The position numbers and the translations under genes are program-made. Below, piece by piece: positions 2,912 to 25,251 of a stretch of 64,000 bases of DNA (position 1 is its first letter; each line of letters begins with the position of its first letter). The notes beneath the pieces were generated by a model. That model worked only from the letters and a program-made list of their open reading frames with translations. It ran no database searches and was not told the DNA's origin. The stretch is from Candidatus Moraniibacteriota bacterium (lineage in GTDB: Bacteria; Patescibacteriota; Minisyncoccia; Moranbacterales; UBA2206): positions 78,415 through 142,414 of the forward strand of contig JBAQNM010000013.1 of NCBI GenBank assembly GCA_049303795.1. Direction: 5' to 3'.

Positions 2912-2920
2912 ATATTTACT

Positions 2921-2945: not shown

Positions 2946-2983
2946 TTGAAATAGTATTAATTAGTTTAGGTAAATAAAATTAT

Positions 2984-4012
2984 ATGGGTTTAAAAAAATC
3001 TGATCTACTAAAAAGTGAAGTAAAGCACATTGATATCAAAAAAATTGATGCAACTAATATTGTTGAATCAATGAAGAATATGTCGTTTACTGCGAGAGAT
3101 TTAGCTAGAGGTGCTGAAATTTTCAATCAAATGTTAGAGGATAAGGACTGTGTAACAATCTTAACTTTAGCTGGAAGTTCAAGTGCAGCAGGATGTATGC
3201 AGGTCTATGTTGATATGATAAAAAATAACATGATTGATGTTGTTGTTTCAACAGGTGCCAGTATTGTAGATATGGATTTTTTTGAAGCCTTGGGTTTTAA
3301 GCATTATAAAGGAACATCAACAATTGACGATACTCTCCTGCGAGGATTGTATATTGATAGAATTTATGACACATTTATTGACGAAGATGAATTGCAAAAA
3401 TGTGATTTAGTTATTGAAGAAATTGCCAATAGTCTTGATCCAAAAGCCTATTCTTCTCGAGAATTTATTTGGGAAATGGGAAAATATCTTTCAAAGCATG
3501 CTAAAAAGAAAGATTCTTTAGTTCAGGCTGCCTATGAAAACAACGTTCCAATTTTCTGTCCAGCTTTTTCTGACTCTAGCGCTGGCTTTGGCTTAGTAGT
3601 ACATCAAGTTAAAAATCCTGATAATCATATTTCTATCGATTCAGTGAAAGATTTTAGAGAGTTGACTGAAATAAAGATAAAATCAGGAAACACCGGAATG
3701 TTTATTATTGGCGGTGGTGTTCCAAAAAATTTCACACAGGATACAATTATTTGCGCAGAAACATTAGGACATACAGTTCCTATGCATAGATATGCAGTGC
3801 AGATTACCGTAGCTGATGTTCGTGATGGAGCTTGCTCCAGTTCAACCTTGAAGGAAGCTAGTTCATGGGGCAAGGTGGGAACCGCTTTTGAGCAAATGGT
3901 TTTTGCTGAAGCGACTTCCGTTCTGCCTTTAATGGCCAGCTATGTTTACCATAAAGGAGCTTGGAAAAACAGAAAGAAGCACGAATTAGCTAAAATGTTT
4001 GAGAAAAAATAA
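2984..4012 (+). CDS. Deoxyhypusine synthase-like protein (DHS family)
   Basis: 342 aa. VPIFCPAFSDSSAG matches the IPVFSPALTDGSLG motif, GMFIIGGGVPKNF matches GMIILGGGVVKHH, and EASSWGKV matches the catalytic-lysine motif EAVSWGKI of eukaryotic and archaeal DHS. Confidence 0.8.
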   Translation: MGLKKSDLLKSEVKHIDIKKIDATNIVESMKNMSFTARDLARGAEIFNQMLEDKDCVTILTLAGSSSAAGCMQVYVDMIKNNMIDVVVSTGASIVDMDFFEALGFKHYKGTSTIDDTLLRGLYIDRIYDTFIDEDELQKCDLVIEEIANSLDPKAYSSREFIWEMGKYLSKHAKKKDSLVQAAYENNVPIFCPAFSDSSAGFGLVVHQVKNPDNHISIDSVKDFRELTEIKIKSGNTGMFIIGGGVPKNFTQDTIICAETLGHTVPMHRYAVQITVADVRDGACSSSTLKEASSWGKVGTAFEQMVFAEATSVLPLMASYVYHKGAWKNRKKHELAKMFEKK

Positions 4013-4157
4013 AGATACTTCAAATCAAGAAAAAGCTTAAAAGAAAGTCATTTTCCTTGATTTCCTAAATAGGCCAGTTTTAAGGCCTGTTTTTGTGTAC
4101 TTAAAAATATCACGACTTATCTCTTGCTTTATATAAGCCAACAATATCTTACTGTGT

Positions 4158-4186
4158 TTGACAAAAAGGCATTTTAGGTGTATAAT
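4158..4186 (+). promoter_or_regulatory. Consensus sigma70 promoter (TTGACA, 17 nt spacer, tgTATAAT) upstream of the 4256 gene
   Basis: -35 at 4158-4163 and extended -10 at 4179-4186. RBS TAGGAGGG precedes the ATG at 4256. Confidence 0.6.
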
Positions 4187-4255
4187 TAAAAATCACTTAG
4201 CATAGGGCTTTGTGGTGAGTTACTTAAAAATAAAATATTTCCATAGGAGGGTGAA

Positions 4256-5257
4256 ATGCATATTCCAATGTGGTTGCTGTTTGCATTAATTTCGCCCTTC
4301 GCCAACGCCCTGGTGAATGTCGTAGATGTGTATTTTGCAAAGGGCGTATATGAAAATGAGTGGGACGGTGCTGCGGTCAGTTGTATGTTTAAGGTTTTTG
4401 TATTGCCCGCTCTGCTCATCTGGGTAGTTTGGCAAGGGGAATCCCAAATCGTTTTGAGTCAATTTTCCGAAATTGACAAAAATCTTTTTGGACTGGCATT
4501 TATCGGAGGGATATTTTATTCTCTCTCCAGTTACTTCTATTTCCGGGCAGTGATGTCTGGAAAAGCTGATGTAGTTTTCATTGAAGCCCTGTTCAACTTA
4601 ACGGCTGTGTTTGTTCCAGTGCTAGCAGTTCTTGTACTGGGCAAAGTTTTAACGGTCAATCAATGGATTGGGGTAGTCCTGGCATGCCTAGGAGCATTCG
4701 TGCTCTATGTCAGAGCTCAGGACTTGTCGGTGGAAAATCTCATTGGAAAGAAAACAGCATCGATGATTATGGCTTCAATTTGTCTTTCAATTTGTATTGT
4801 AATTGAAAACAAAGTTTATGAAGCTGCTCCGTTCATTCCCATTTTCTGCGTATTCTCTTGTGGATGTTTTATGACCGGATGCTCGTATGCTGTTGTGCGG
4901 AAAATGAAAAAAATGCAAAGTCTGAGCGGACTTTGCCGAAGATTTTTTCTCATTTTCATTATTATGGAAACTCTAGAGCTGATTGGTGTGCTCAACCAAG
5001 AACTCGCGCTGTCGATGACGGAATCGTATCACGTCTCTACGGTGTATTGTTTCCAGCCAGTATTCGCGCTAGTAATATCCGGTATGATGCTGGTCATATT
5101 CTCAACCATCGCCTTGTTTCCGAAAAGATTTCGGAAGCTTCAGGTGAAACTGAATGGACTTGCCAAAGAAGTTCATGCAGATCAGGCAGGCAACCTTTGG
5201 GCGAAAGCTTTCGGTATCGTGGCTATAACTATAGCTGTGATATTGGTTAGCTGTTAG
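4256..5257 (+). CDS. Polytopic membrane protein (~10 TM), possible DMT/EamA-like transporter; compositionally GC-rich relative to its neighbours
   Basis: 333 aa of hydrophobic repeats. Local GC is visibly higher than the flanking genes, and a spurious 130-aa overlapping ORF (4858-5250) appears in another frame, which is typical of higher GC. Confidence 0.5.
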   Translation: MHIPMWLLFALISPFANALVNVVDVYFAKGVYENEWDGAAVSCMFKVFVLPALLIWVVWQGESQIVLSQFSEIDKNLFGLAFIGGIFYSLSSYFYFRAVMSGKADVVFIEALFNLTAVFVPVLAVLVLGKVLTVNQWIGVVLACLGAFVLYVRAQDLSVENLIGKKTASMIMASICLSICIVIENKVYEAAPFIPIFCVFSCGCFMTGCSYAVVRKMKKMQSLSGLCRRFFLIFIIMETLELIGVLNQELALSMTESYHVSTVYCFQPVFALVISGMMLVIFSTIALFPKRFRKLQVKLNGLAKEVHADQAGNLWAKAFGIVAITIAVILVSC

Positions 5258-5291
5258 TCAGCGGTGAAATTAACTTTTCACCGCTTTTTTT
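5258..5291 (+). terminator. Intrinsic terminator (CAGCGGTGAAA...TTTCACCGCT followed by T7)
   Basis: 10-bp stem lies immediately after the stop codon at 5255-5257. Confidence 0.7.
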
Positions 5292-5292
5292 A

Positions 5293-5522
5293 TCTAAAAA
5301 TAGTTAGGTTATTTTTATTCTTGACGCTACGCTATAATTCATGCGATACTAAGCTTAGCGATATGCAAAATAATCACATAACAAAAAGAAGTTGTTGTTG
5401 TCTCGATATTAATATCTCGAGAAATTTTTGTTTTTGATTAAATAAGTTTAAAGATAGCTAAGCAAAAAATATTTCTCGAGACAATCGAGATTTTTTAATT
5501 TAATAAATAATAATTTAATTTT
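5293..5522 (+). promoter_or_regulatory. Structured leader upstream of cysteine synthase, with a -10 TATAAT at 5334-5339 and two terminator-like hairpins built from the same TCTCGA/TCGAGA arms (5401-5423 and 5474-5496)
   Basis: TCTCGA(5401)...TCGAGA(5418) followed by a T-rich tract. TCTCGAGA(5474)-CAA-TCGAGA(5485) followed by T6, ending ~30 nt before the ATG. Confidence 0.4.
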
Positions 5523-6425
5523 ATGATTTACAATAACATATTAGGACTAATTGGAAATACGCCGATGGTAAAAATTAATAAGTTTAAACTAAAAAAAGGA
5601 GTTGAAATTTTTGCTAAATTGGAAGGTGCCAATCCCGGAGGAAGTATTAAAGACAGGATTGCTTTGAAGATGATCCAAGAAGCAATTAAAAAAGGAAAAC
5701 TGACCAAGAAAAAAATTATCATTGAGCCGACTTCTGGCAATACTGGAATTGGTCTAGCTATGATCGGAACTATTTTGGGCTATTCAGTGGAAATCGTGAT
5801 GAGTGAATCCGTTTCAGTTGAAAGGCGAAAAATGATTGAAGCGTTTGGCGCTAAAATAATCCTAACTGATCCTGAGAAAGGGACGGACGGGGCAATCCTA
5901 AAAGCGCGGGAATTGGTCAGAAAAAATCCAAGGATATATTTCATGCCCGATCAATTTTCCAATAAGAATAATAAGTTGGCACATTATGAAGCGACGGCTA
6001 AAGAAATTTGGGCAGATATGAACGGAAAAATAGATTATTTAGTTTCTTCGATTGGAACTTCTGGCACGATAATGGGAGTGCGTGAATATCTGAAAAAACT
6101 AAATCCAAAAATAAAAATAGTTTGTGCTTATCCGGAAAAAGGCCACTACATTCAAGGACTTAAAAACATGGAAGAGGCGATTGTGCCAAAATTATATGAT
6201 AAAAATAAGATTGATGAGTTTATTACCATTCCAACCGAAAAAGCTTTTGAAATAGCAAGAGCCTTAGCTAGAAAGGAAGGTCTTTTTGTTGGCATGTCGA
6301 GTGGAGCGGCAATGCTGGGGGCACTAGAGATTGCCAAGAAAATTCGTTCTGGAAGAATCGTAGTCATTTTTCCAGATAGGGGGGAAAAATATTTGAGTAC
6401 GGAGTTGTTTGATAGGGCCGATTAA
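5523..6425 (+). CDS. cysK: Cysteine synthase / O-acetylserine sulfhydrylase family (PLP-dependent, CysK/CysM/CBS fold)
   Basis: 300 aa. The PLP-lysine motif (GGSIKDR) and the glycine-rich loop (TSGNTGIGLA) are present. Confidence 0.8.
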   Translation: MIYNNILGLIGNTPMVKINKFKLKKGVEIFAKLEGANPGGSIKDRIALKMIQEAIKKGKLTKKKIIIEPTSGNTGIGLAMIGTILGYSVEIVMSESVSVERRKMIEAFGAKIILTDPEKGTDGAILKARELVRKNPRIYFMPDQFSNKNNKLAHYEATAKEIWADMNGKIDYLVSSIGTSGTIMGVREYLKKLNPKIKIVCAYPEKGHYIQGLKNMEEAIVPKLYDKNKIDEFITIPTEKAFEIARALARKEGLFVGMSSGAAMLGALEIAKKIRSGRIVVIFPDRGEKYLSTELFDRAD

Positions 6426-6495
6426 GGTTTGGGCTATTTAATGCTATACTTTAGTAAAGAAGTTTTTTTAATCCCCAATCAATTTTATTAAATAA

Positions 6496-7008
6496 ATGCT
6501 TATATTTTTATGGATTTTTTGGTTGCTATTGATTTCGACAGCCTACGTTTATAAAACAACGAATGCTCCATTAATTCTCAGTCCTGAAAAAGGAACAATA
6601 TTGGCGCTTGAATTTATTAATCCTCAAAAAGGCGCTATTTTTTATGATTTAGGATGTGGAACAGGGAGGACTCTTATTTTAGCAGAAAAAAAATTCGGAT
6701 TGCGTTCGACTGGCTTTGAATTGGCTATCACTTCCTATGTGGTTGGTAAAATTAATCTTTTTTTGCGCAAATCAAAAAATTCGAAAATTATTTTTAAAAA
6801 TCTTTATAGGGTGCCACTCAATAAGGTGGATATCGTTTTTTGTTTTTTAAATATCAAAGCAATGGAAAAATTAGAGGAAAAACTTGAAAAAGAAATGAAG
6901 CAGGGAGGTTGGTTGATTTCCTATTGCTTTTCCTTAAAAAAAAGAAAACCCACAAAAATTATTATTTCAAAAAATAAACATACTTTCTATCTTTATAAAT
7001 ATTTATGA
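6496..7008 (+). CDS. Class I SAM-dependent methyltransferase with N-terminal TM helix
   Basis: 170 aa. DLGCGTG motif I is present, and there is an N-terminal hydrophobic segment. Confidence 0.6.
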   Translation: MLIFLWIFWLLLISTAYVYKTTNAPLILSPEKGTILALEFINPQKGAIFYDLGCGTGRTLILAEKKFGLRSTGFELAITSYVVGKINLFLRKSKNSKIIFKNLYRVPLNKVDIVFCFLNIKAMEKLEEKLEKEMKQGGWLISYCFSLKKRKPTKIIISKNKHTFYLYKYL

Positions 7009-7100
7009 TGCAATTGGTTTGATATAAACCTTATATTACATCCTGCTTTCCAATTTTAAACAACATGCTATATTGAAGGTATCTCAAGTAGTGCCATATA

Positions 7101-7952
7101 ATGTCAATTAATATGTGCCAAATAGAAACACCTCCATTTATATTCTATTCTTATATCTCAACAATAATCCTGAGTCTTATTACCGCTTTCAGCGTTATAT
7201 ACAAAAAAATGAAGTATTCCTTAAATCGGAATGCTTTTTATTTTATTCTGATTATAGCGCTATGGACGGTTGGAGACTTGATTTTGTGGATAGCACGTTA
7301 TTCATCAATAAATCAAGTTCTTTATAGGTCATCCTATCTTATCGATTCTTTTTTTATATTTTTTCTCTATTTTGCATATGATTTCGCCGGTGAAAAATTA
7401 AGCCAGAAAAGAAAACTGATTTTTGCCTTGCCACTTTTCGTTACGATTTTTTCAGTAATTAGTGGTTATGGAATTGGGCATATGGAAAATGACACTTGTA
7501 TTTATAAACCGGGTTGGCTAATTTATTATAGTCTCCCATTTAATCTTATATATTCCATTTGGGCATCAGTCGTGCTTATAAGAAAATATAAAGATCCTAT
7601 ATTGCTTTACAGAACAAAATCACAGATTAAACCTCTAGTTTTGGCGATTATGTTTTTTGTTTTGTGGACTATCGTCTATGAAGTGATGAATATTCTCAGT
7701 GAAATGAAAAAATTAAACATAGAAATCTCATCTTACTTTGTGTTGGGCAATTTATTTTTTATTACGCTTATAATTTTTAATATCGCTGAATGTGATCTTT
7801 TCGAATTTAAACTTATTGCCAGAAAATGGTTTATATTAGTTGTTTTTTCAATTATTTTTTTTGGCATGTTTTTTCTTTCTCTTGTTCCAATGTTTTATTT
7901 GATACTACTAATATTTTATATTGTAACCGTTTGGGTTTTTTTAAAGATGTAA
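7101..7952 (+). CDS. Standalone polytopic membrane sensor-like domain, paralogous to the N-terminal domain of the histidine kinase at 8929
   Basis: 283 aa with 7-8 TM helices. ALWTVGDLILWIAR aligns with SLWSFLDLILWAQN of the HK N-terminus. No cytoplasmic output domain. Confidence 0.55.
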   Translation: MSINMCQIETPPFIFYSYISTIILSLITAFSVIYKKMKYSLNRNAFYFILIIALWTVGDLILWIARYSSINQVLYRSSYLIDSFFIFFLYFAYDFAGEKLSQKRKLIFALPLFVTIFSVISGYGIGHMENDTCIYKPGWLIYYSLPFNLIYSIWASVVLIRKYKDPILLYRTKSQIKPLVLAIMFFVLWTIVYEVMNILSEMKKLNIEISSYFVLGNLFFITLIIFNIAECDLFEFKLIARKWFILVVFSIIFFGMFFLSLVPMFYLILLIFYIVTVWVFLKM

Positions 7953-8013
7953 TGTTATGAATTGGTATCGATGGTTGTCCTTTTTTGTTTTTAAGCAAAA
8001 CTGATATTTAAAT

Positions 8014-8042
8014 TTGAACAACAACAAATAGTATGTTATAAT
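8014..8042 (+). promoter_or_regulatory. Sigma70-like promoter (TTGAAC, 17 nt spacer, TATAAT) for the PRMT-like/HK operon
   Basis: -35 at 8014-8019 and -10 at 8037-8042. Confidence 0.5.
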
Positions 8043-8087
8043 AAAAAAAATGAATCAACATTTTAACTAAATTAAATTAAATTTTTT

Positions 8088-8924
8088 ATGTCTGAAGGAA
8101 AACAATATTGGTCAATGACAGAGGGCGCTTTTTATTGTCTGTATGATAAAAAAAGGACTTTGGCTTTTAGAAAAGCTATAAAAAATACGGTCAAAAAAGG
8201 AGATGTGGTTGTTGATATGGGAACTGGTACTGGAGTTTTGGCTATGTTTGCAGTAGATGCTGGAGCGAAAATTGTTTATGCTGTAGAGTATGACGAAGGT
8301 AATATTAGAACACTTGAGCAAATTTTTAAAACAAACGGATATGGCGAAAAGATAGTTTTGATTAAAGGCGATGTCACAAAAATTAATCTTTCACAAGAGG
8401 CAGATGTGATAATTGGAGAGATGATTGCTACTGGATTAGTTGAAGAGCTTCAGATACCTGCCATGAATAATATGCTGAGGTTTTTAAAAAAAGGTGGAAA
8501 AGTTTTACTAGATAGGTATGAAATATATATCGATTTAGTTTCAAATAAGGATAAATTTTATAATCGAAAATTTAAAATAATTCGCTATGAATTCCCAGAT
8601 AAACCTTCAATGAAGTCAGTTGGCTTATCTGAAAAAATTAATATCAGAAGTGTTGATTTTAATAGAAAAAATGAAGATAATAGGATTGATAAAAGAATAT
8701 CTATTGTCATTATGAAAGGCGGCATTATAAATGGAATAAGGATAAGTGGAGTTACTAGATTTTATGATGGCTCATCTTTTGGGGAATCTATCGCGTATAG
8801 TTTTCCGGTAATACTTCCTACTGATGATTTTGTAGTTAAAAAAGGAGATGTTTTTGTAGTAAACATTTCTTATGAAATGTGTAAGGGTTTTGAGGGTTTA
8901 GATTATTCAATTTGTAAAAAATAA
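8088..8924 (+). CDS. Protein arginine N-methyltransferase (PRMT)-like class I SAM methyltransferase
   Basis: 278 aa. YWSMTEGAFYCLYDKKRTLAFRKAI aligns with PRMT1 [28 protein letters not shown]. Motif I VVDMGTGTGVLAMFAVDAGAKIVYAVE, motif II DVIIGEMIATGL (DIIISEWMG in PRMT1) and FLKKGGKVL (LLKPGG) are present, followed by a ~130-aa C-terminal domain. Confidence 0.6.
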   Translation: MSEGKQYWSMTEGAFYCLYDKKRTLAFRKAIKNTVKKGDVVVDMGTGTGVLAMFAVDAGAKIVYAVEYDEGNIRTLEQIFKTNGYGEKIVLIKGDVTKINLSQEADVIIGEMIATGLVEELQIPAMNNMLRFLKKGGKVLLDRYEIYIDLVSNKDKFYNRKFKIIRYEFPDKPSMKSVGLSEKINIRSVDFNRKNEDNRIDKRISIVIMKGGIINGIRISGVTRFYDGSSFGESIAYSFPVILPTDDFVVKKGDVFVVNISYEMCKGFEGLDYSICKK

Positions 8925-11629: not shown

Positions 11630-13774
11630 ATGCATTATTTTCGAATGGTTTCTTTGGTAATCGGTGTCGTATTGGCAATGGCGAGTAACTCTTTTGCTAT
11701 TAATGATGACCTAAGTTGGGCGGCAAAGTGGCTTTTACCAGGTGATCAGTTTGATTCAAAAGATGAGAGAGAATGGACATCTGAAAAAGGCTATATCTAT
11801 GGACACGGCAATCTCATCACTGCAAAGCTTAGATTTGATGATGAAGCAATAAACACTTTCAGGCATCAAATTGGAGGTTCGTATCATTTTGGACTCGAGC
11901 TTGACATCGTTGAATGTAGTTGCGATGGAAATAGTCCGCAACTTGTAACTGCCAGCATTCAGCATTCTCTTCCTTTATCGACCAGGCCGGTTATGGACAC
12001 AGATTTTGGTGACAGTATAACTAACAGTGGAAATTGTAAATCGAACGGAGGCGACCCATATGTTGTTGGAGCGTTAATGATTAGAGAACCTCAATATTTG
12101 GAATCCGGTGTCGATTATTACGTCTTCTACTATCTTGAAGATTGTATTCCTGCATCAGGGGTTAATTTGCATTTAACCTTAAAACTCACTCAGTATGTGC
12201 CAGTTATCAAAGCATTGTCTTATGATTTCGTATACGGCAGTATTATTAATGGGATACGTATCTATTTTGGCAATGATGATGTCTTGGATATTTTTAATTA
12301 TTTTGTTGTTGAAAGCGATTCCTATGAAAGTTTTATCGCTAAGCCTACAGGATATAATGGAACGCGCTGGTCAGATAAAGTATTAAGTACTCCATGTGTC
12401 ATTGAAGATCATGATATGTGTGTTGGGCTCGAACAAAGTCAAGTAAAAAGAACATTTTTATCCCTCATTCCATCGTTTGTTTCAATAGCATATGCAAGCG
12501 ATTGCGTACCAACTAGTACTGCTTCCAAGCAAGCTATGTATGTTGGTGATCTTGGGATTCCTGTTGACTATGATGGGACATCTCCTCCAGGCGATCCTAT
12601 AATCCCAACTCTCCCCGGCCCATTTCCCAATCTCCACATCGAAGAGCTTAATCTCCACGATTCCGCCTACAATAAACTGCCCGACGACGGTACTGCCTAT
12701 CTCAAACCCGGCGAAACATATGAAATTCATGTCTGGCCAGAATCAACTGAAGAACATTGTCTGTGCGGAACAAATAATGAAGAAATCGAAGTCATCACCG
12801 ACACTTATGTTAAAATCGGAATTTCTCAAGAAGATGGAAATTGGATGCGCATCAAACGTTCCTATACGCACTGTAAATATATGGACGAAGATGATTCCAA
12901 AAAAGAAGTTTTCTTCTGGACGGTTCCTTTTGACGCTGCCGGAAAACTAATTGCCTTCAAAGCCAAAGTCGATTCAACTAACATCATCAGAGAATCTAAC
13001 GAAGATGATAATGGTTGCGATATTGAATATTATCCGGTTGAAGGCTATTGTCCTAGTTGTCCTGATTTTGTTTCCAAAAATGTCAAACTTACTTGCGGAA
13101 AAACCGAACTAAATCTTGGTGATAAATTCGGCTTAGAGGCTGATATTTTAAATCAAGGCAGTTCCGATTGTCCTATTGATATTCACGGCGCTTATTATCT
13201 CAAAACTCCCAATGCAACCAGCTGGGTAAATATCGCTGATGATACCAGTGGAGCTTCAGGACTTAGCGTTGGAGAAATTGAACACGAATACACAACGGAC
13301 TCTCCCTTCACCGCTAATGTTATTGGCACCTGGCAAGGCATGTTCTGCGCTGACTATCAAAATCAAGTTCGCGAACAAAACGAAGACAATAATTGTCAAA
13401 CTTTCAGCTTTAAAGTTAATCCGGTCGGACCGGATTTTATTGTCTCCAGCTTAGGCTTTAAGGAAGGATTATCCTTCAAACGTAAAATCTCATCCCACCC
13501 CTGGGCCATCATTAGAAACATTGGCAATCAAACTCCCAAATCCAGTATCCGCATTGCTTATTACATCGATGGAGTCTTTCGTGATGATGACACAATCGAA
13601 GCCAGCGAACTCACTCCCGGACGCGATCAATTCGAAAGCGTTCTTAACAACAGTATCAATCTTGGTGACTGGGGCACTAGAACCCTCACTGTCAAAGTGG
13701 ACATTGATGGCAAAGTCGTTGAACTCAATGAGAGCAACAACTCCTCATCAGTTAAATTCACTGTAATTCGATAA
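11630..13774 (+). CDS. Large secreted Cys-rich protein with C-terminal CARDB-like repeats
   Basis: 714 aa. Signal peptide MHYFRMVSLVIGVVLAMASNSFA. Many Cys pairs. Three C-terminal repeats end in E.NE.NN motifs (ESNEDDNGC, REQNEDNNC, ELNESNNSS) characteristic of CARDB domains. GGAGG RBS. Patches of elevated GC. Confidence 0.6.
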   Translation: MHYFRMVSLVIGVVLAMASNSFAINDDLSWAAKWLLPGDQFDSKDEREWTSEKGYIYGHGNLITAKLRFDDEAINTFRHQIGGSYHFGLELDIVECSCDGNSPQLVTASIQHSLPLSTRPVMDTDFGDSITNSGNCKSNGGDPYVVGALMIREPQYLESGVDYYVFYYLEDCIPASGVNLHLTLKLTQYVPVIKALSYDFVYGSIINGIRIYFGNDDVLDIFNYFVVESDSYESFIAKPTGYNGTRWSDKVLSTPCVIEDHDMCVGLEQSQVKRTFLSLIPSFVSIAYASDCVPTSTASKQAMYVGDLGIPVDYDGTSPPGDPIIPTLPGPFPNLHIEELNLHDSAYNKLPDDGTAYLKPGETYEIHVWPESTEEHCLCGTNNEEIEVITDTYVKIGISQEDGNWMRIKRSYTHCKYMDEDDSKKEVFFWTVPFDAAGKLIAFKAKVDSTNIIRESNEDDNGCDIEYYPVEGYCPSCPDFVSKNVKLTCGKTELNLGDKFGLEADILNQGSSDCPIDIHGAYYLKTPNATSWVNIADDTSGASGLSVGEIEHEYTTDSPFTANVIGTWQGMFCADYQNQVREQNEDNNCQTFSFKVNPVGPDFIVSSLGFKEGLSFKRKISSHPWAIIRNIGNQTPKSSIRIAYYIDGVFRDDDTIEASELTPGRDQFESVLNNSINLGDWGTRTLTVKVDIDGKVVELNESNNSSSVKFTVIR

Positions 13775-13810: not shown

Positions 13811-13851
13811 CACGCTCAATCCTCAAAGGGGGTTGGGCGTGTTATTTTTTA
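13811..13851 (+). terminator. Intrinsic terminator (CACGCTCAA...TTGGGCGTG followed by T-run)
   Basis: Imperfect 9-bp stem followed by T7. Confidence 0.5.
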
Positions 13852-13991: not shown

Positions 13992-15620
13992 ATGTCTAAT
14001 TTGAGGGAAAAAAATAACGGAAATTCAAAGGATCTCGTTTTCAATTACTATTTAAGTCGAATTAAAAAACGAGACGTTCATTTTCTTTTCATTATCCATC
14101 TCACTAGAACAATAGAAGTTTTTATTGAAAGTTGGCTGAAGAATTTTCCCAATGTAGGTGTTATATCAATCAATTATTCTGAGATTCCAGAAGTCAAAGA
14201 AAATATAAGCAAATATGCTCAAGTATATAGTCCTAGTGATGTCTCAGAAATACCAGAATTAATAACTAAAATTTGCAATCAAAATTTAAGCAAAAAAATT
14301 TGTACGATTGAAATTGGAGGATACTCTAGTCTAATAAAGAGAATCCCTGATAATATTATTGGAGCAGTTGAAGATACGAATCAAGGGCATTGGAGTTTCA
14401 AGCAAAATGAATCCCGGCTCACATATCCGGTCATAAGCATTGCCCAAACTAATCTTAAGAAAATTGAAAATAAATTTGTCGGATCTTCTATTAGTTATTC
14501 TTTGGAGAAATTCTTGCGAGATCATTTTCAAAGAGATCTGATAACGATCAAAAATATTTTAGTCATTGGTTATGGAGAAGTTGGCCGTGGAACAGCGAGA
14601 AAGCTTAAAAGCACACTAGCTAATGTTTTTGTTTATGACAGCGATCCAGTAAACACTATGCTGGCAAGATTGGATGGTTTTAATATCACTGATAGGATAT
14701 CAGCCATATCACAAGCAGACATAATTATTGGAGCATCAGGGCAGCAATCATTGCAAATGAGTGATTTTGTTTATTTAAAAAATAATTGCTTATTGATCAG
14801 TGCTTCATCTAGGCAAGTTGAATTTCCAATTGATGAAATAGAAAAAAATGTTATTAAAAAAAGTAGTTATATAAATTCCTATAGATCAGAAAACGGGCTT
14901 TTCTATGTCGCTTATAACGGATTTCCTATAAATTTTATCGATGATTCAGCTTTTGGAGAAATTTTTGATATCATTATGTCTAGCCTTCTTGTTGCTTCTG
15001 ACTATATTTTAGATTCAAATTTATTGCCAAAAGTTTATGACCTTGATTTGAGGTTGCAGCAAGATATAGTGAGAAAATATTTCGAATTATATGAAATGGA
15101 TAATCATGAAGTAATTTTTCAAACTGAGTTAATAAAAAATAAGCGTCATGATGCTGCTAGTGCTTTGATTGTTTCCAAAAATGCTTTTGGTAAATTATCT
15201 GTTCTACTATTAAATCATCCAAGAATTGGAAAGTGGATACCTATTGGAGGGCATGTGGAAAGATTTGAATCACCTGAAAGTGCTGTTCTGCGAGAATTGG
15301 AAGATGAAATAGGCATTTCTCCTATTTATTGGTTTGACAAAAAACTCAATCAACTAGTAACAGTGCCTGTTCTTTTTTGTGAAATGTTGGAAAAAATTGA
15401 TGCTCATAAAGATAGCCCTGTTCATTACCACAGAGATTATATTTATGTCGCCATGATTGATTATCAAATGGAGGATAAATTCACCGGGACAATTCCAACG
15501 GGAAGTTTAAAGTGGCTTGAAATTGATGATATTCTCAAGTTAGATATTGAAAAGACTACCCCTGAAACATTACAAATGATCAAGGATTTGAAGGTGCATG
15601 AAAAAGAATTGCTCGGGTAA
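13992..15620 (+). CDS. S-adenosyl-L-homocysteine hydrolase (SAHH)-like two-domain protein fused to a C-terminal NUDIX hydrolase domain
   Basis: 542 aa. [13 protein letters not shown] aligns with SAHH [44 protein letters not shown] aligns with [46 protein letters not shown]...[18 protein letters not shown] aligns with the NAD domain VAGYGDVGKGCA...TEIDPICALQAAMEGY. The C-terminal part carries a Nudix box, [24 protein letters not shown]. Confidence 0.6.
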   Translation: [542 protein letters not shown]

Positions 15621-15629
15621 CAAAAAGTA

Positions 15630-17117
15630 CTAGTGATTTTTTTTCTTAATAATAAGACTTTTAAAGAAGATTAAATCTTCTTTTTTTATTTCTCTTAGGG
15701 CAAAAAGTAAAACAAAATAAAATGATAATAAGATTAATGACCAAAAAATGAAGTAGTAGCTTTCATTGGAAAGTATAGTAGCAGCAAAATAAAGAGCTCC
15801 AGAGGCTAAAATGACCTTCAGAAGACTCTTGCCGCTAATTAACACATTAAACTCTCTGTAGAGAAAATAGACCATCAGGAGCATCGCTAGAAACGATGAA
15901 ATAGTTGTGGCCCAAGCTGAGCCCATAAGTCCGAATTTTAGGATAAAAAAATAATTCAAAACAGAATTCAAAATCAGGCCAATAATAGAGATAACCATTG
16001 GTATTTTGGTTTTTCCAGCGCCGTTCATAACAAAACTCATCACATAAAAAATAGTGAGAAATCCGACGCCATAAACCAAGACCGCCATCGGTTCAGCGGC
16101 GGCTAAATATTTCGCACTATAAAAAATTTTAATTATTGGCTTGGAAAAATAGGCCATCAGAATAATAGAAGGTGCTAAAAGAATTAACATTAAACGTAAA
16201 GAATTTCCAATAATCTGACTGGTTTTTTTATGATTATTTTCAGAAACACTTTTGGAAATTGTCGGAAGAAGAACTACAGTTAGGGCGTAGAAAATATAAT
16301 AGGGGATTCGTCCAACTGTAAGGGCGCCGTTATAAATTCCAGTTAAATAATCATCTCTCAAAATGCCTTTGACTAAATATAAATCAATACTGATGAAAAG
16401 CTCATAGGCCAAAAAGAAAAGGATAATTTGCCAAGCATAACGCATAAGTTTTTTATATTCAAAGACCACTTCCGCTTTATCAGGATTGAGTTTTATTTGA
16501 TTTTCAATTTCTGTTTTAATTTTAAACTTATCAATACACCAACCGATAATAAAAGTTAGAAACGGAGCAATAACATAACCCAAGATTGCCCCGGGCACTT
16601 TATAGAAATAGGCGAGAGCGACAATAATTGTCACTCTGAAAAGTGAACGCAAAGTTTTCAATAAGGATTGAATATTAAACTTATGCAAACCGGTATAGTA
16701 GGAAAAATAAAAAGAGGACATGGCAAAAGCGGGAATAATCAAACTGGAAAGACGAAAAAGATTAGTGAGTGTTGGATCTTTCAGTGCCCAAGCTAGGACT
16801 GGCGCTAGGAGAAAAAATATCACAGTCAGAAGTCCGATAATGACAGATTGCAAAATGATAGCTTTCTTTTTGATAACACCAATCATTTTTGGGTTAGCTT
16901 CAAAAACTTCACTCAGATATTTGGCCATGGCGGTCGGTACACCATTGCCAATAAGAATTATAATCATTGTGGTTAGCGTTATCACTATTCCATAACGACC
17001 GTAATCATTCGGACCAAGGATTCTTCCGGCAACAGAATGGATTACATAACCGGAAAGATTAAATAAGATCTCTGAAATCGTTACCCAAAAAACTGATTTT
17101 GCTAAACTGTTTTTCAT
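15630..17117 (-). CDS. Polysaccharide/oligosaccharide flippase (Wzx-like, MOP/PST superfamily)
   Basis: 495 aa with ~14 TM helices. N-terminal pattern typical of PST-family flippases. Confidence 0.7.
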   Translation of the reverse strand: MKNSLAKSVFWVTISEILFNLSGYVIHSVAGRILGPNDYGRYGIVITLTTMIIILIGNGVPTAMAKYLSEVFEANPKMIGVIKKKAIILQSVIIGLLTVIFFLLAPVLAWALKDPTLTNLFRLSSLIIPAFAMSSFYFSYYTGLHKFNIQSLLKTLRSLFRVTIIVALAYFYKVPGAILGYVIAPFLTFIIGWCIDKFKIKTEIENQIKLNPDKAEVVFEYKKLMRYAWQIILFFLAYELFISIDLYLVKGILRDDYLTGIYNGALTVGRIPYYIFYALTVVLLPTISKSVSENNHKKTSQIIGNSLRLMLILLAPSIILMAYFSKPIIKIFYSAKYLAAAEPMAVLVYGVGFLTIFYVMSFVMNGAGKTKIPMVISIIGLILNSVLNYFFILKFGLMGSAWATTISSFLAMLLMVYFLYREFNVLISGKSLLKVILASGALYFAATILSNESYYFIFWSLILLSFYFVLLFALREIKKEDLIFFKSLIIKKKNH

Positions 17118-17725
17118 AGAAATGATTTTATTTTTTCAAAAATTGCTTCTTTCTCTTGATTGCCGTTAATTATTTTCAAATTCCAATCAAGCGTTTTTTT
17201 ATCATATAACGCTTTTTTATTTTTCAGATAATCTATTCCCTGATCGGGTTTTCGATCACGTGACATAATAATTTGCGGATCAGCCTGAAGATAGATTGCC
17301 GTGTCAGGAGCTTTGATAAATTTTTCGCAAGGAATGGTTTTTTGCGAATCACTTAGAAAATAAATATTAATTATGCTGTCGTAGAAATAGCGGTCGCTTA
17401 AGATGTAATCGAAGTTTTCTTTTTCTAATTTTTTATGTAATTTTTTAAAGCGCCAAATGTCAATCATTAGAAATATTCGGCGAAGGATTATTTGAAGCTC
17501 ACTGGCGCGAGTGACACTTTTTTCTCTATATACATCACATCTCCCGGATAATCTACAAAACATGCAATATTTGTTTCGAAAATCAATAATTTTCTTAGCA
17601 AAACCCTGTTCAATGGCATGAAAATAAAAAACGCGCTTATTTTGCGATTCTAAATAATTTTTAAGCGTTTCTATTTGCGTTGATTTTCCCGATCCATCGA
17701 GACCGGAAATTGTAAGTAGTTTCAT
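17114..17725 (-). CDS. Thymidylate kinase-family P-loop kinase (Tmk-like) with Cys-containing insertion
   Basis: 203 aa. ISGLDGSGKSTQ P-loop, DRY..D..I.Y motif, and a DTAIYLQADPQ LID-region analogue. Overlaps the flippase start by 4 nt (ATGA). Confidence 0.55.
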   Translation of the reverse strand: MKLLTISGLDGSGKSTQIETLKNYLESQNKRVFYFHAIEQGFAKKIIDFRNKYCMFCRLSGRCDVYREKSVTRASELQIILRRIFLMIDIWRFKKLHKKLEKENFDYILSDRYFYDSIINIYFLSDSQKTIPCEKFIKAPDTAIYLQADPQIIMSRDRKPDQGIDYLKNKKALYDKKTLDWNLKIINGNQEKEAIFEKIKSFL

Positions 17726-17735: not shown

Positions 17736-19232
17736 TTAATACATCAAAACCGCCACCGGTTCCATCTTGGCAATAACTTTGACAATGTTATTATCTTCCA
17801 TTCCGGAGATTACTTCTTCCACATCTTTATAATACGAACTATCTTGCATGACGACGCCACTGGACGCAGCGTTATATAGTTTAACATTATTTTTTTGCAT
17901 TTTTTGAAACAATTCTTCTTTGCTATGTGTGGCATCAGAAAGAGGATTTTTTCGCCGTCCCGTGCCATGGCTAGCGGAATAGAAACTAGATTCATTGCCA
18001 TCTGTTCCGGCGCAAATATAAGCGGACGTACTCATTGATGAAGGAATGAAAACCGGCTCACCAGTCTTTGAAAAAAGCGGATGATCTTTCATTCTCTCAG
18101 GACTATTCGCTCTCACTGTGCCATTTCTGTGCACCCAAACATTACTGCCAAAATGATTTTCTTTATGGATATAGACATGAGGCATATCATAGAGCATATC
18201 CAACTCGGGATTTTTGCCTAATGTTTTTTCCAAGGCTAAATCCAATTGATGATTGAGAATTGAACGATTAGCATAGCCTTGATTGGCCGAAGCGTTATGA
18301 GCAGTAAGAAACAATTTTCCTTCCACGCTTTTTTCGTCATAAGAAAAATATTCTTTGTTATCTTTGGAGCTTTCAATTTTTTTCCACAAGCTCTTGAATT
18401 CTTTTTTATAATCAGTTTTGAAGAAAAATTTACCCAATTCCAATACTATTCTTTGACTCAAATGTTCTTTTCTTTTTGGTGTGTATAAATATGAAGCATA
18501 TTGACCAAGGAGTCCTGATCCGGTGTGTAGCAAGAAAATATATTGGCCATTTTTAAGTCCAAATTTTTCGGCGATTTCCGGATTTTTAATCTCACTAATT
18601 TTCATTAAATCCAAAAAATGATTGCCAGCTGCGCCCAGAATTCCCAGACGATATTTTCCGATATGCAAAAATAATTTTGGAATAGCATTTAAAATTTCTT
18701 TTTCACTGGGAATTTCTGAGAAAAAATTTCCACCTTCAAAGGTATTTTCAATTTCATTTTTAGTGCGCGCTTTGAAAAATTCTCGCACTGGAGCAACACC
18801 TTTGCGACAAATATCCATAATCAGAGAATAGGGGACTTTTGTACCAATATAGGTTTTTGTTGGAATAGCGGTGATTAATTCTTGGAAAAGCTTGTCAATC
18901 TTTTCAGTAGTCAAATCAGCATCTGTGAGGTTGGTTTTCAAAAAACGCATACCGCAATTTGGAGCCGTGTCGTTGATCTGAGGTAAGAGATGATGTTCGG
19001 AAACGACGACTGTTCCAGTTGGATTTTTGCGTCCTTTTTTACTATGCACATCACTCATGGCAGCCACATGATGAAAAACCTTTTTTTCACTCGAAACCGC
19101 TTCGATTTCAGCTAGCGTGGAATCATTAGGCATTAAATCTTCCGAGACATGCAAAAACGCCGGCACTTGCATTTTGTCGGTTTTGAATTCGCGTTTATTT
19201 TTTTGGATATTAGAAAATGTATATTTTGACAT
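17736..19232 (-). CDS. rtcB: RtcB-family RNA 3'-phosphate ligase
   Basis: 498 aa. AAMSDVHSKKG, TAPNCGMRF and SASHGTGR align with conserved RtcB metal-binding and active-site motifs. Confidence 0.7.
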   Translation of the reverse strand: MSKYTFSNIQKNKREFKTDKMQVPAFLHVSEDLMPNDSTLAEIEAVSSEKKVFHHVAAMSDVHSKKGRKNPTGTVVVSEHHLLPQINDTAPNCGMRFLKTNLTDADLTTEKIDKLFQELITAIPTKTYIGTKVPYSLIMDICRKGVAPVREFFKARTKNEIENTFEGGNFFSEIPSEKEILNAIPKLFLHIGKYRLGILGAAGNHFLDLMKISEIKNPEIAEKFGLKNGQYIFLLHTGSGLLGQYASYLYTPKRKEHLSQRIVLELGKFFFKTDYKKEFKSLWKKIESSKDNKEYFSYDEKSVEGKLFLTAHNASANQGYANRSILNHQLDLALEKTLGKNPELDMLYDMPHVYIHKENHFGSNVWVHRNGTVRANSPERMKDHPLFSKTGEPVFIPSSMSTSAYICAGTDGNESSFYSASHGTGRRKNPLSDATHSKEELFQKMQKNNVKLYNAASSGVVMQDSSYYKDVEEVISGMEDNNIVKVIAKMEPVAVLMY

Positions 19233-19339: not shown

Positions 19340-20224
19340 TTACCCCTTATAAATTAAATGAATCTTATTTATGCTTTCAAATGGATTTAGACGTTTTTTT
19401 AAATAATCCTGTCCTTTATTTTCCGATCCTTGCATTCCAAATAATCTGATAGTAGGATACTTACTTATAACAAATTCCATACTTTTGTATACTAAATATT
19501 TCATTATATTTCTTTCATGTCCACAAATTACCATATTGTAAAAACAGACGTCTTCTACTGGAGTTAAAAAAGATACACCAATTAGTTTATTATTTTCCAT
19601 ATGTTGGAGCATGATTTTTGTAGTAATAGAATCATCAAAAAAGAATTTGTGGGCGTTGACGACTTCTGAAGCGTAATCATTTCCTTTGTTTTCAGAATAT
19701 TTAGAAAAATCGATTAGCATTTTCATAACTTCAGAATTATATATATTTTCATAAGGAACTGTAGTGATATTTCTATTTTTTTCAAAATATCTTATTTGTC
19801 TTTTTATATCTTCTTTAAAGTCTCTTGTTTCTACTGTGTTTTTATGTATATTGTACTGAGCAAAAGAATTATCATCCATTGAGGAATATTTGCTCCACGG
19901 AGTATTTTTCTTTGAAAATCCATTTTCAATCCACCAATCAAGTTCCATTAAATCAACGTTTTTTATAATTATACACTTAATTTCTTTTTGTAATTTTTTG
20001 CATAAATTTAAGACCACTAGCTTTCTTTTGGGACCTAATGAATTGACAATAATAGCAGAGTCGTTATCTTTATAAGTATAATACACGATTGAATCAAGGC
20101 TTCTTTCAATGAAAAGGTTATCTCTCGTACTTTGTACTATATAGGTCCAATTATTCTCAAAAGCACCTAAGTTAATACCAGGGCTCGCCTTTAATAATTT
20201 ATAGAATTCGCTTTCATTATTCAT
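19340..20224 (-). CDS. Hypothetical protein; possible GNAT-fold/DUF2156-like acyltransferase (low confidence)
   Basis: 294 aa with no strong motif recognised. Confidence 0.3.
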   Translation of the reverse strand: MNNESEFYKLLKASPGINLGAFENNWTYIVQSTRDNLFIERSLDSIVYYTYKDNDSAIIVNSLGPKRKLVVLNLCKKLQKEIKCIIIKNVDLMELDWWIENGFSKKNTPWSKYSSMDDNSFAQYNIHKNTVETRDFKEDIKRQIRYFEKNRNITTVPYENIYNSEVMKMLIDFSKYSENKGNDYASEVVNAHKFFFDDSITTKIMLQHMENNKLIGVSFLTPVEDVCFYNMVICGHERNIMKYLVYKSMEFVISKYPTIRLFGMQGSENKGQDYLKKRLNPFESINKIHLIYKG

Positions 20225-20633
20225 TAAGATATTTTATTTTTTTAATGAAAGATTTCAAATCTTTTTCAGTTTTTTCGGTTAGGTTATACTTATCAATCCG
20301 ATTAAGATTTATCCAGTCAAAATTTTCACCTTCATTCAAAACAAATTCGGACTTGGTTTTTTCACTCAACGCATAAAAAACAAATCGATGGGTTTGAAAT
20401 TCTTCATTGAAATAATCGTAAAGTGTGATGACATCTTCTATTTTAAATTTAATTCCAATTTCTTCATTAATTTCTCTGACAAAACAATCAACTGGCGTTT
20501 CTGCACCTTCATTTAATCCTCCAAAAAATGCCCAATAATTGGGATTAAATTTAGTAGTTGAATCACGTTTATGTAATAAAACTGAATTATTTTTGGGATT
20601 ATATAAAAATCCACCAGCCCAGAATTTTTCCAT
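20217..20633 (-). CDS. NUDIX hydrolase
   Basis: 138 aa. Nudix box GGLNEGAETPVDCFVREINEEIGI. Confidence 0.8.
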   Translation of the reverse strand: MEKFWAGGFLYNPKNNSVLLHKRDSTTKFNPNYWAFFGGLNEGAETPVDCFVREINEEIGIKFKIEDVITLYDYFNEEFQTHRFVFYALSEKTKSEFVLNEGENFDWINLNRIDKYNLTEKTEKDLKSFIKKIKYLNE

Positions 20634-24795: not shown

Positions 24796-25251
24796 TTATT
24801 TTGTCATTTCTAAGGCTTTTTTGCAATAGAATTTAACGTTTTCCACTAGATTAAATTTAGCATCATCCAAGTCTTCACTTTTAAACCAGCGAATAGCATC
24901 ATGCTCTTCTTCGTTGAGGATGATAGTATTGGTTTTTGCTTTTGCAAAATACTCAAATGCAATATGCTTATGAGTATCACTAATCTTATGAATATCAAGA
25001 AATGCGGGCAAAGGAAGAGGTTTAAAATCTTTAAATTTCATATTAGGCTGTTGACTGATAATTTCCACTTCTAATCCGCATTCTTCTTTTATCTCTCTGA
25101 AAAGTGCTTCTTCCGGATCTTCGGATAGTTCAATGTGACCTCCAATGGGAAGCCAAATTCCAAGCTGTTTGTGCTTGATCAATAGAACTTTATTGTCATA
25201 TGTAATGTAGGCATTTATTACAAAATCTATTAAATTATGAATATGTCCCAT
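24796..25251 (-). CDS. NUDIX hydrolase (paralog of the NUDIX domain of the 13992 protein)
   Basis: 151 aa. Nudix box GGHIELSEDPEEALFREIKEECGL. W.PIGGH.E..E.PE.A..RE is shared with residues ~415-450 of the 13992 product. Confidence 0.8.
   Translation of the reverse strand: MGHIHNLIDFVINAYITYDNKVLLIKHKQLGIWLPIGGHIELSEDPEEALFREIKEECGLEVEIISQQPNMKFKDFKPLPLPAFLDIHKISDTHKHIAFEYFAKAKTNTIILNEEEHDAIRWFKSEDLDDAKFNLVENVKFYCKKALEMTK

Follow-up and report, generated by a model that had tools for sequence, protein, structure and literature searches.

Which reaction would call for a protein that joins the fold of S-adenosylhomocysteine (SAH) hydrolase (SAHH) to a Nudix hydrolase? The question is raised by an open reading frame (ORF) in a 64,000-nucleotide (nt) stretch of DNA (the window) from contig JBAQNM010000013.1 of a Candidatus Moraniibacteriota bacterium (positions 78,415 to 142,414, forward strand). 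The SAHH-like–Nudix fusion ORF (13992..15620, plus strand) begins with ATG, is complete, and encodes 542 amino acids (aa) plus a stop codon; the product is named 'NUDIX domain-containing protein [Candidatus Moraniibacteriota bacterium]' at NCBI. We find that the protein is very probably not an adenosylhomocysteinase, because the residues equivalent to Asp131, His301, and His353 of SAHH are replaced family-wide and its scores lie far under the curated cutoffs. Its SAHH-like half belongs to a large, functionally uncharacterised sister family of SAHH that is spread over bacteria and archaea. As for function, we lean slightly towards a bifunctional enzyme that would couple an NAD-dependent, redox-neutral change to a nucleotide's ribose with the hydrolysis of pyrophosphate, making or detoxifying an antimetabolite.

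Architecture of the fusion protein

The fusion protein is composed of the following parts, all encoded on the plus strand. Model confidence is given as the predicted local distance difference test (pLDDT).

14025..14528, plus strand: N-terminal part of the substrate-binding domain, residues ~12-179 (profile alignment, fold match, and conservation)
14529..14939, plus strand: NAD-binding Rossmann domain, residues ~180-316 (Pfam PF00670, profile alignment)
14940..15092, plus strand: return segment of the substrate-binding domain, residues ~317-367 (alignment; model helices 323-341 and 353-367)
15093..15143, plus strand: linker helix, residues ~368-384 (pLDDT ~57-75, the least confident region of the model after the N-terminus)
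15144..15617, plus strand: Nudix hydrolase domain of the 3F6A / 1K2E subfamily, residues 385-542 (Pfam PF00293, subfamily profile)
15249..15317, plus strand: Nudix box GX5EX7REUXEEXGU, residues 420-442 (read from the sequence)
15423..15437, plus strand: H478-x-H480-x-D482 motif (both His invariant in 13 partner domains)

Pfam recognised the NAD domain (AdoHcyase_NAD, PF00670; residues 183-291, E=2.2e-16) and the Nudix domain, as the original prediction expected, but the AdoHcyase substrate-domain model PF05221, which it expected too, found no match in the window protein. The best NCBIfam matches were adenosylhomocysteinase equivalogs below cutoff (NF004005, 93.2 vs 275 bits; TIGR00936, 81.4 vs 497.6 bits). 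As a single sequence, the protein matched SAHHs of the PDB over residues 117-363 only, with E=4e-20 for the Thermotoga maritima enzyme. A profile of 15 family members aligned positions 10-381 with residues 16-397 of the T. maritima SAHH chain (E=4e-47). The AlphaFold2 model, built with 26 homologues, has a mean pLDDT of 88.8 and is weak only at residues 1-11 and in the linker near 370-380; when it was compared with the PDB by Foldseek, the top 50 matches were all SAHHs, with target-normalised template modelling (TM) scores of 0.75-0.78 over ~390 columns, and the alignment spans nearly all of the 401-residue T. maritima SAHH (TM 0.78). Since the family profile and the structure superposition cover both SAHH domains, the N-terminal 116 residues are a diverged SAHH substrate-binding domain. 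The two-domain homology proposed from the sequence thus extends to a full SAHH fold (residues ~12-367), and a generic Rossmann dehydrogenase unrelated to SAHH is ruled out, since the substrate domain is homologous as well.

The motifs of the substrate domain are H36 (SAHH His55), I-x-Y62-S63 (NxFS), E107-I-G-G-Y111 (DDGGD), E127-D-T129-N-Q-G (EETTTG), and K156-K-I-E159-N160 (K186..F189-D190), with the SAHH counterparts in brackets. Those of the NAD domain are G193-Y-G-E-V-G198 (GxGxxG), D216 (Glu243), G247-A-S-G250, S270-A-S-S-R-Q-V-E277, and P312-I-N314-F (Asn346), and the return segment has D317-D-S-A-F321-G at the place of SAHH G-C-A-M-G-His353-P. The motif pairs that had been drawn up by eye (HLTRTIE with HMTxxTA, a 9-residue stretch with K186..D190, and a 12-residue stretch with TEIDP) agree with the profile alignment, and the CNIFSTQD region, described as diverged, reads ISINYSEI in the window protein. 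The two-domain fold, the NAD domain, and the equivalents of Lys186, Glu155/Glu156-Thr157, and His55 are shared with the T. maritima (3X2E) and human (1LI4) enzymes, whereas the C-terminal tail of SAHH is replaced by the linker and the Nudix domain.

The Nudix half scores E=4e-9 with Pfam PF00293 (37 bits with the whole protein, 41.2 bits with the isolated domain, against a gathering threshold of 21.1). Its box, G420-x5-E426-x7-R434-E435-L-E-D438-E439-I-G-I, is intact and canonical as predicted, apart from one Glu-to-Asp change at position 438, which is Glu in most homologues; G419, G420, H421, E426, R434, E435, and E439 do not vary among 16 fusion homologues. From the intact catalytic box we infer that the C-terminal ~160 residues form an active-looking Nudix pyrophosphohydrolase. 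The Nudix partners of SAHH-like proteins constitute one subfamily with an extra HxHxD motif, which is specific to it. The subfamily profile matched 3f6a of the PDB with E=1e-29. The structures 3F6A (Clostridium perfringens), 1JRK/1K26/1K2E (Pyrobaculum aerophilum), and 3FCM share the subfamily, the HK..G.W.PGGH.E context of the box, and HxH(x)D (E=1e-29 and 1e-22); they differ in being stand-alone proteins with unspecific PDB names ('Hydrolase, NUDIX family', 'Nudix homolog'). The 551-aa N-terminal Nudix fusion P0172 has a degenerate box at residues ~75-100 (…SKRLLKGFG…), in which the REUxEE glutamates are replaced and HYHHD is kept.

The joining of an SAHH fold and a Nudix domain in a single polypeptide proved genuine. 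The ORF is continuous, and a search of 5.8 billion proteins returned 19 clusters with the AdoHcyase_NAD+NUDIX architecture, ranging from 100% down to 39% identity, whose members align along both halves and the linker, the linker varying in length. The identical protein with the same neighbours is found on contigs of GCA_049286985.1 and GCA_049305975.1 (NCBI) and in SRR28062512 (an independent Logan assembly). That a frameshift, a mis-assembly, or read-through of two adjacent genes produced the fusion has no direct support, although separate adjacent SAHH-like and Nudix genes do exist elsewhere (L015, L033). With the conserved linker down to 39% identity, the agreement of three independent assemblies, and a structure model that is confident on either side of the junction, we give such an artefact practically no chance; mis-assembly or frameshift, named by the original prediction as what might undo it, is ruled out by the 19 clusters, the aligned linker, and the three assemblies. 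The architecture had been called unrecognised, and our literature search found no publication on it and nothing relevant on the SAHH-like family.

Active-site residues and extent of the SAHH-like family

The profile alignment against T. maritima SAHH was carried onto the human SAHH numbering, which is consistent with His54, Asp130, Glu155, Lys185, and Asp189 of the rat enzyme (papers cited in PMC8599513). Conservation was counted over 172 family sequences. The SAHH positions and their equivalents in the window protein are:

His55: H36, kept (160/172)
Thr57: T38, kept
Glu59 (adenine contact): T40, changed; Thr or Asp at this position in the family
Phe82-Ser83: Y62-S63, Ser kept
Asp130-Asp131-Gly-Gly-Asp134: E107-I108-G-G-Y111, Asp131 and Asp134 changed
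Glu155-Glu156-Thr157: E127-D128-T129, kept, with Glu156 to Asp (E127 171/172)
Lys186: K156, kept (171/172)
Phe189: E159, a new acidic residue (171/172)
Asp190: N160, changed here; Asp in many relatives
GxGxxG: residues 193-198, kept, near-invariant
Glu243: D216, acidic, kept, near-invariant
Asn298-Ile-Gly-His301-Phe-Asp-Val-Glu305: S270-A-S-S273-R274-Q-V-E277, His301 changed (E277 172/172)
Asn346: N314, kept (167/172)
His353: F321, changed

Across the family, strong constraint acts on the NAD site and on the residues for oxidation of the 3'-OH. At the His301 position, 170 of the 172 sequences have Ser (S273) and none has His; the His353 position likewise has no His in any member and is occupied by a hydrophobic residue, and the Asp131 position is mostly Ile or Val. 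Newly conserved are E159, Y111 (162/172), and K/R274 (162/172), the last forming a S272-S273-K/R274 loop. Of the catalytic residues that the original prediction proposed to inspect, the Lys and His55 equivalents are therefore kept, whereas those of Asp131, Asp190, His301, and His353 are replaced, and the SAH salvage that it suggested is unlikely in view of the family-wide replacements at Asp131, His301, and His353 and of the scores far below the cutoffs.

The SAHH homologue AgmF provides a useful comparison. It has tightly bound NAD, dehydrates psicofuranine, and does not accept SAH; its H56, D129, K184, D188, and H299 are conserved and all essential, the mutants being inactive (PMC8599513). 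By SAHH numbering, and not by an alignment with AgmF itself, D129, H299, and D188 correspond to Ile, Ser, and Asn of the window protein. AgmF has the canonical H/D/K/D/H set, of which three residues are replaced in the SAHH-like family. The residues that SAHH and AgmF use for chemistry at C4'/C5' appear, from the alignments, to have been swapped for a different and equally conserved set.

To assess the extent of the family, its profile was run with HMMER exhaustively against 1.84 billion cluster representatives (50% identity). At least 150 family representatives at 50% identity score 267-529 bits, whereas solved SAHH structures reach at most 164 bits with the same profile; the window protein scores 522.8 bits and contains every residue of the signature H..-IPYS-E[IV]GGY-[VI]EDT..G-K..E-GxGxxG-D-S.SS[KR]..E-P.NF. 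The majority of members are stand-alone proteins of 360-420 aa; apparent N-terminal extensions of the high-GC homologues L054, L058, and L066 are probably artefacts of longest-ORF calling. In genome and metagenome scans, members were found in many lineages, among them Moranbacteria, Levybacteria, DPANN archaea (Nanohalobium, Micrarchaeota), many Chlamydiae, Verrucomicrobia, Caldilineaceae, Nitrospira, Betaproteobacteria, and the isolate Tenacibaculum caenipelagi. No relatives were found among 2.9 million viral contigs, Pfam and NCBIfam have no model dedicated to the family, and a search of the PDB with the family profile found no solved structure of any member. One homologue is auto-annotated at JGI as 'S-adenosylhomocysteine hydrolase/ADP-ribose pyrophosphatase'.

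Gene partners, plasmid relatives, and the window locus

Nudix domains are also found at the other end of SAHH-like proteins. In P0166 and P0172, which carry an N-terminal Nudix domain, the SAHH-like part is only 24-27% identical to that of the C-terminal fusions, including the window protein, and has unfused closest relatives, so the fusion arose at least twice. Other domains are attached as well: a P-loop kinase-like domain at the N-terminus of P0048 and P0051, and a methyltransferase at the C-terminus of P0084. In P0020 (308 aa), the N-terminal part of AbiEii (PF08843) is joined directly to a Nudix domain 60% identical to that of the window protein and the SAHH-like part is missing; it looks like a deletion chimera.

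For a survey of gene partners, ORFs were called in 52 non-redundant loci and clustered, and the clusters were annotated. A fused Nudix domain is present in 10 loci, and a separate Nudix gene adjoins the SAHH-like gene in 6 more, including loci of DPANN archaea and Chlamydiae. The gene orders are PfkB kinase, SAHH-like, Nudix, HD in L015, where the PfkB gene overlaps the SAHH-like gene; SAHH-like, Nudix in L033; and ANT-like nucleotidyltransferase, SAHH-like, HD, Nudix, acetyltransferase, MatE in L055. An HD phosphohydrolase gene is adjacent in 5 of the 52 loci and lies within five genes in 3 others. The HD partners form one orthologous YpgQ/YedJ-like family, with 38-43% identity between Firmicutes plasmids and the candidate phyla radiation (CPR) or DPANN. 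Eight loci of Chlamydiae/Verrucomicrobia share one operon with HIT protein(s) and adenylate kinase, in the order EamA transporter, HIT, an enzyme of the cysteine desulfurase family dependent on pyridoxal phosphate (PLP; TIGR01977, above cutoff), a ~100-aa protein, adenylate kinase, and SAHH-like, sometimes with a second HIT gene. In these eight (L017, L018, L020, L024, L025, L026, L038, and L062), several adjacent genes overlap; the ~100-aa protein has no Pfam match and resembles a MazG-like nucleoside triphosphate (NTP) pyrophosphohydrolase by eye only. Altogether, a Nudix, HD, or HIT partner, fused or adjacent, accompanies the SAHH-like gene in ~29 of the 52 loci. Less frequent neighbours are a Tmk-like kinase (3/52), a nucleoside phosphorylase with a cytidine deaminase (L079, L082), and a weak phosphoribosyltransferase-like gene (L034, L084). 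Comparative genomics thus ties the two activities together functionally, since Nudix and SAHH-like parts were fused more than once and also recur as conserved pairs of genes. More generally, the family is repeatedly and independently associated with enzymes that remove nucleotide phosphates (Nudix, HD, HIT) or attach them (kinases), and it is frequently found with transporters.

Several loci have neighbours of a different kind. In the Moranbacteria loci L004 (228-1083) and L010 (5024-5879), two genes lie directly 5' of the fusion gene, one of 85 aa and the other encoding AbiEii (Pfam on L004). The AbiEii toxin-antitoxin pair, found in these two loci and near one Levybacteria homologue, was judged to be a hitch-hiking mobile element and not a partner. 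In metagenome-assembled genomes of Nitrospira, Steroidobacteraceae, and Methyloceanibacter (L029, L031, and L032), three conserved genes lie 5' of the stand-alone homologue, and one of them matches pP_pnuc_1 (E=8e-13), a predicted pPIWI-associated nuclease that hints at a defence-island setting.

Distant relatives were found by tblastn against PLSDB on 66 plasmids. Of these records 41 are from Lactiplantibacillus, four from Pediococcus, and one each from Levilactobacillus and Lentilactobacillus; most of the plasmids are typed as mobilizable or conjugative. The Lactiplantibacillus module was inspected in one L. plantarum plasmid (L090, NZ_CP017376.1, 3708-6900), where it consists of a major facilitator superfamily (MFS) transporter, a YpgQ-like HD phosphohydrolase, and an 'S-adenosyl-L-homocysteine hydrolase'. 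On the 24.9-kb S. epidermidis plasmid NZ_CP121498.1 (L089, locus 1-8409), ten co-directional coding sequences encode ParB-N, an HpaB-like (flavin) monooxygenase, a NUDIX protein, a member of the Xaa-Pro peptidase family, a PLP enzyme, a PyrE-like phosphoribosyltransferase, an HD protein, the SAHH-like protein (annotated 'NAD(P)-dependent oxidoreductase'), and two adjacent MFS transporters. This locus, on the plasmid of a skin isolate, has the look of a cluster for a nucleoside or nucleobase antimetabolite that has not been described before; it is not the staphylococcal 6-thioguanine tgs operon, which differs in gene content and is without an SAHH-like gene (PMC7994395). Two Streptomyces plasmids carry GNAT, SAHH-like, hypothetical, methyltransferase, phosphoribosyltransferase, and HAD genes, to which one adds a radical-SAM gene. 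The plasmid proteins keep H36, GGY, EDT, KxxED, and NF and are without both histidines; they score only 153-234 bits, and their S-S-K/R loop differs, and we regard all of them, those of Streptomyces included, as sister clades.

As the original prediction stated, the fusion gene of the window stands between the gene of a probably secreted CARDB protein and a glycan locus. The features upstream are:

11630..13774, plus strand: CARDB-domain protein of 714 aa with a signal-peptide-like N-terminus and many Cys, the upstream neighbour, which ends at the hairpin terminator
13811..13841, plus strand: strong intrinsic-terminator-like hairpin found by scan, with a 14-bp stem, 8 G-C pairs, and then a T-run, 3' of the CARDB gene

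On the other side, a convergent flippase gene on the minus strand ends 9 nt past the fusion stop codon and belongs to a minus-strand flippase/glycosyltransferase block. Because of the terminator-like hairpin upstream and the convergent gene downstream, the fusion gene is monocistronic, with its own transcription unit. An Rfam scan of its 217-nt leader found no riboswitch or known RNA (best E=0.36, far under the gathering scores), and a family-profile search of the window found no second SAHH-like gene. The downstream block includes two stand-alone Nudix genes among the glycosyltransferases. One (24796..25251, minus strand, 151 aa) is, like the fused domain, a member of the HxH subfamily, and the two share the pattern HK..G.WLPIGGHIE ... 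HxH, and the paralogy proposed for the two is borne out by 51% identity over 39 aa (E=1e-13); the other (20217..20633, minus strand, 138 aa) lies outside that subfamily. Unusual company for a glycan locus is provided by three genes that separate the flippase gene from the glycosyltransferases. They encode a thymidylate-kinase-like P-loop protein (17114..17725, minus strand; its gene overlaps the flippase gene by 4 nt), an RtcB-like RNA ligase homologue (17736..19232, minus strand), and a 294-aa protein without a Pfam match (19340..20224, minus strand). The thymidylate-kinase-like neighbour was considered as a conserved partner; it has only P-loop similarity to the Tmk-like gene near P0025 and lies within the convergent glycan operon, and we take its presence to be coincidental, even though three other family members also have a Tmk-like gene nearby.

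Possible functions of the fusion protein

The bifunctional enzyme that we favour would work as follows. The SAHH-like half, which, judged from residue conservation, keeps the machinery for tightly bound NAD and the 3'-OH oxidation residues K156, E127/D128/T129, and H36, would form a transient 3'-keto intermediate on a phosphorylated nucleoside other than SAH. It appears to have lost Asp131, His301, and His353, which SAHH uses to eliminate and re-add the 5'-substituent, and to have gained Y111, E159, and the Ser-Ser-Lys/Arg loop; the 3'-keto step would then be followed by epimerisation, elimination, or substitution at a neighbouring ribose position. The Nudix half would act on the substrate or the product, cutting its tri- or diphosphate (or NDP-X, NDP being nucleoside diphosphate) form down to the monophosphate. 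Candidate reactions include 2'- or 3'-epimerisation, 4',5'-elimination, and oxidation feeding a transaminase or sulfur transferase. The most likely biological role, by analogy, would be the production, or else the detoxification, of a nucleoside or nucleotide antimetabolite with a modified ribose, because the gene is sporadic and often borne on plasmids or islands, related copies lie beside transporters, and the logic follows that of Pur10+Pur7, PenF, and AgmF. The pathway for an adenosine- or ADP-ribose-containing metabolite proposed originally is thereby supported in general terms, as a dedicated nucleotide-metabolite pathway; specificity for adenine or ADP-ribose is not established, because the Glu59 position is Thr or Asp, the SAHH residues are replaced, and the scores are far below the cutoffs.

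Known pathways provide partial parallels. In aminonucleoside pathways, Pur10 dehydrogenates ATP in an NAD-dependent manner and acts jointly with Pur7, a Nudix enzyme converting NTP to nucleoside monophosphate (NMP) (PMC11641026). The same logic of NAD-dependent 3'-OH oxidation and Nudix NTP-to-NMP conversion, followed by tailoring and dephosphorylation, is found with Pur4 and Pur3 in puromycin, A201A, cystocin, and ADG. By its description, Pur10 is analogous and not homologous, the source likening it to RifL (PMC11641026), and its keto intermediate is transaminated instead of being re-reduced, whereas no aminotransferase gene adjoins the window gene. In the vidarabine (pen) cluster, PenF is a YpgQ-like HD protein with 5'-nucleotidase activity that prefers Ara-AMP (PMC11592144), next to two SAHH homologues (PenD/PenG) and an MFS exporter (PenE) (PMC12648386). 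This gene set is like that of the plasmid MFS-HD-SAHH-like module and of the SAHH-like+HD(+Nudix) pairs, the HD partners are of the same YpgQ/YedJ type as PenF, and a phosphorylated ribose-modified nucleoside intermediate is implied in both. In contrast, the window protein has a fused Nudix domain and no HD or MFS gene adjoins its ORF, and the description of PenD/PenG makes them SAH hydrolases that supply adenosine and not epimerases. AgmF also acts in a redox-neutral manner on a nucleoside other than SAH, in an angustmycin pathway with a phosphoribosyltransferase and a phosphatase; it differs in being annotated as an ordinary SAH hydrolase and in having no Nudix fusion.

Several observations weigh against this bifunctional reading. 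About 20 of the 52 loci are without any of the listed partners, several of them being contig ends. The adenylate kinase of the Chlamydiae operon passes the cutoff of the housekeeping adk subfamily (172 vs 168 bits), and its adjacency may be ordinary synteny. Fusion genes of the Moranbacteria type have neither conserved neighbours nor an adjacent operonic transporter; close homologues have differing neighbours, so that the fusion protein seems to be self-contained. With the family profile, the plasmid proteins of Lactiplantibacillus and Staphylococcus reach no more than 153-158 bits; they are without the S-S-K/R-Q-x-E loop, and are treated as sister clades and not as the same subfamily, and the antimetabolite role would be an extrapolation from such distant relatives. 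Phosphate binding is something that the Ser-Ser-Lys/Arg loop, located at the SAHH His301 site near the 5'-substituent, may provide, and the substrate, the product, and NAD binding in the SAHH-like family are inferred.

Among the other explanations, a true adenosylhomocysteinase whose Nudix half adjusts the adenosine-nucleotide pool as SAH is hydrolysed would account for the best database and PDB matches, which are all adenosylhomocysteinases, for the retained NAD site and equivalents of K186, E155/E156, T157, and H55, and for the JGI label. We nevertheless regard it as very unlikely: the equivalents of Asp131, His301, His353, and Asp190 are Ile, Ser, Phe, and Asn, the match reaches 93 of the required 275 bits without a hit to PF05221, equivalent His/Asp mutations abolish AgmF activity (PMC8599513), and the family is sporadic and plasmid-borne, not housekeeping. 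The loss of several SAHH catalytic residues could also mean that the SAHH-like half has no catalytic role and senses a ligand, in the manner of AHCYL1/IRBIT or the Nudix-like NrtR regulators, exerting allosteric control on the Nudix domain; AHCYL1/IRBIT likewise has the SAHH fold, has lost SAH hydrolase function, and has gained an extra region, and the degenerate box of P0172 suggests that not every copy needs both activities. AHCYL1/IRBIT, however, is a eukaryotic regulator, while the Lys, E-D-T, His36, NAD-site, E159, and Y111 positions are near-invariant over the 172 sequences, which fits a catalytic active site and not decay, and most family members stand alone with nothing to regulate; we find a sensor highly improbable.

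The gene context raises two further explanations. A nucleotide-sugar role for the neighbouring glycan locus, in which the Nudix domain hydrolyses an NDP-sugar and the SAHH-like part modifies the nucleotide or sugar to regulate or supply envelope glycans in CPR bacteria, would fit the position of the window gene, which abuts the flippase/glycosyltransferase block with its two further Nudix genes. Comparable settings recur in some CPR loci: in Levybacteria (L014/L047), genes for an RmlA-like nucleotidyltransferase, two GT1 proteins, and a PIG-L protein come after the stand-alone homologue, in L006/L036 HD and GT2 come after it, and Moranbacteria L004 and L039 have a full-length UDP-glucose/GDP-mannose dehydrogenase convergent downstream (Pfam on L004), of which cluster L010 shows just a 231-aa piece at its contig end. 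On the other hand, the window gene is a separate transcription unit (terminator upstream, convergent neighbour), no glycan genes occur in the DPANN, Chlamydiae, Firmicutes-plasmid, or Streptomyces contexts, and glycan loci are so common in small CPR genomes that the adjacency may be chance. The SAHH fold binds the ribose of nucleosides, and we know of no SAHH-fold enzyme that acts on the sugar of an NDP-sugar, which counts against this role too. The glycan link that the original prediction drew is therefore weak, and we consider the role unlikely. An anti-phage or conflict system that destroys or modifies a nucleotide (a signal, an NAD or ADP-ribose derivative, or a dNTP) on infection seems a little less plausible still, although toxin-antitoxin genes stand beside some members (AbiEii in L004/L010/L014, PIN/Phd in L006), the pPIWI-associated nuclease (L029/31/32) and an integrase (A. 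fabrum plasmid) are found nearby, and the distribution is sporadic and mobile. PADLOC-DB 2.0 gave no match to the SAHH-like part and only a weak one of the Nudix box to the candidate PDC-S07 (E=9e-4), and its scan of three stand-alone relatives gave none; no relatives occur in the viral contigs, no literature link was found, and the transporter, phosphoribosyltransferase, and phosphatase partners look biosynthetic.

A bolder version of the favoured bifunctional reading can be drawn, though we think it less likely than not: a widespread and previously unrecognised SAHH-derived family, whose members would carry out isomerisations or eliminations at the nucleotide ribose through a transient NAD-dependent 3'-keto intermediate, would form, together with a dedicated NTP/NMP phosphohydrolase, a minimal mobile cassette for making nucleoside antimetabolites. 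Candidate reactions are 2'-epimerisation to arabino-nucleotides and removal of the 5'-phosphate, which would leave 4',5'-unsaturated nucleosides. If so, the cassette would be found in hosts such as CPR bacteria, DPANN archaea, Chlamydiae, food lactobacilli, and skin staphylococci, and the window protein would be its single-polypeptide version. To our knowledge, SAHH is among the best-conserved enzymes, and only a few descendants with another function are on record, AgmF and inosyl-homocysteine hydrolase being examples. A sister family that numbers hundreds of sequence clusters and has had its active site rebuilt would widen the chemistry of the SAHH fold by a new type of reaction. The labels 'adenosylhomocysteinase' and 'NAD(P)-dependent oxidoreductase' are misleading for proteins of this family. 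The family would flag candidate nucleoside-antimetabolite cassettes on the plasmids of L. plantarum, the S. epidermidis skin isolate, and Streptomyces, and the link between SAHH-like and HD proteins could bear on the unresolved 2'-epimerisation step of vidarabine biosynthesis. The family is also carried by obligate symbionts that live on host nucleotides, namely members of the CPR, DPANN, and Chlamydiae.

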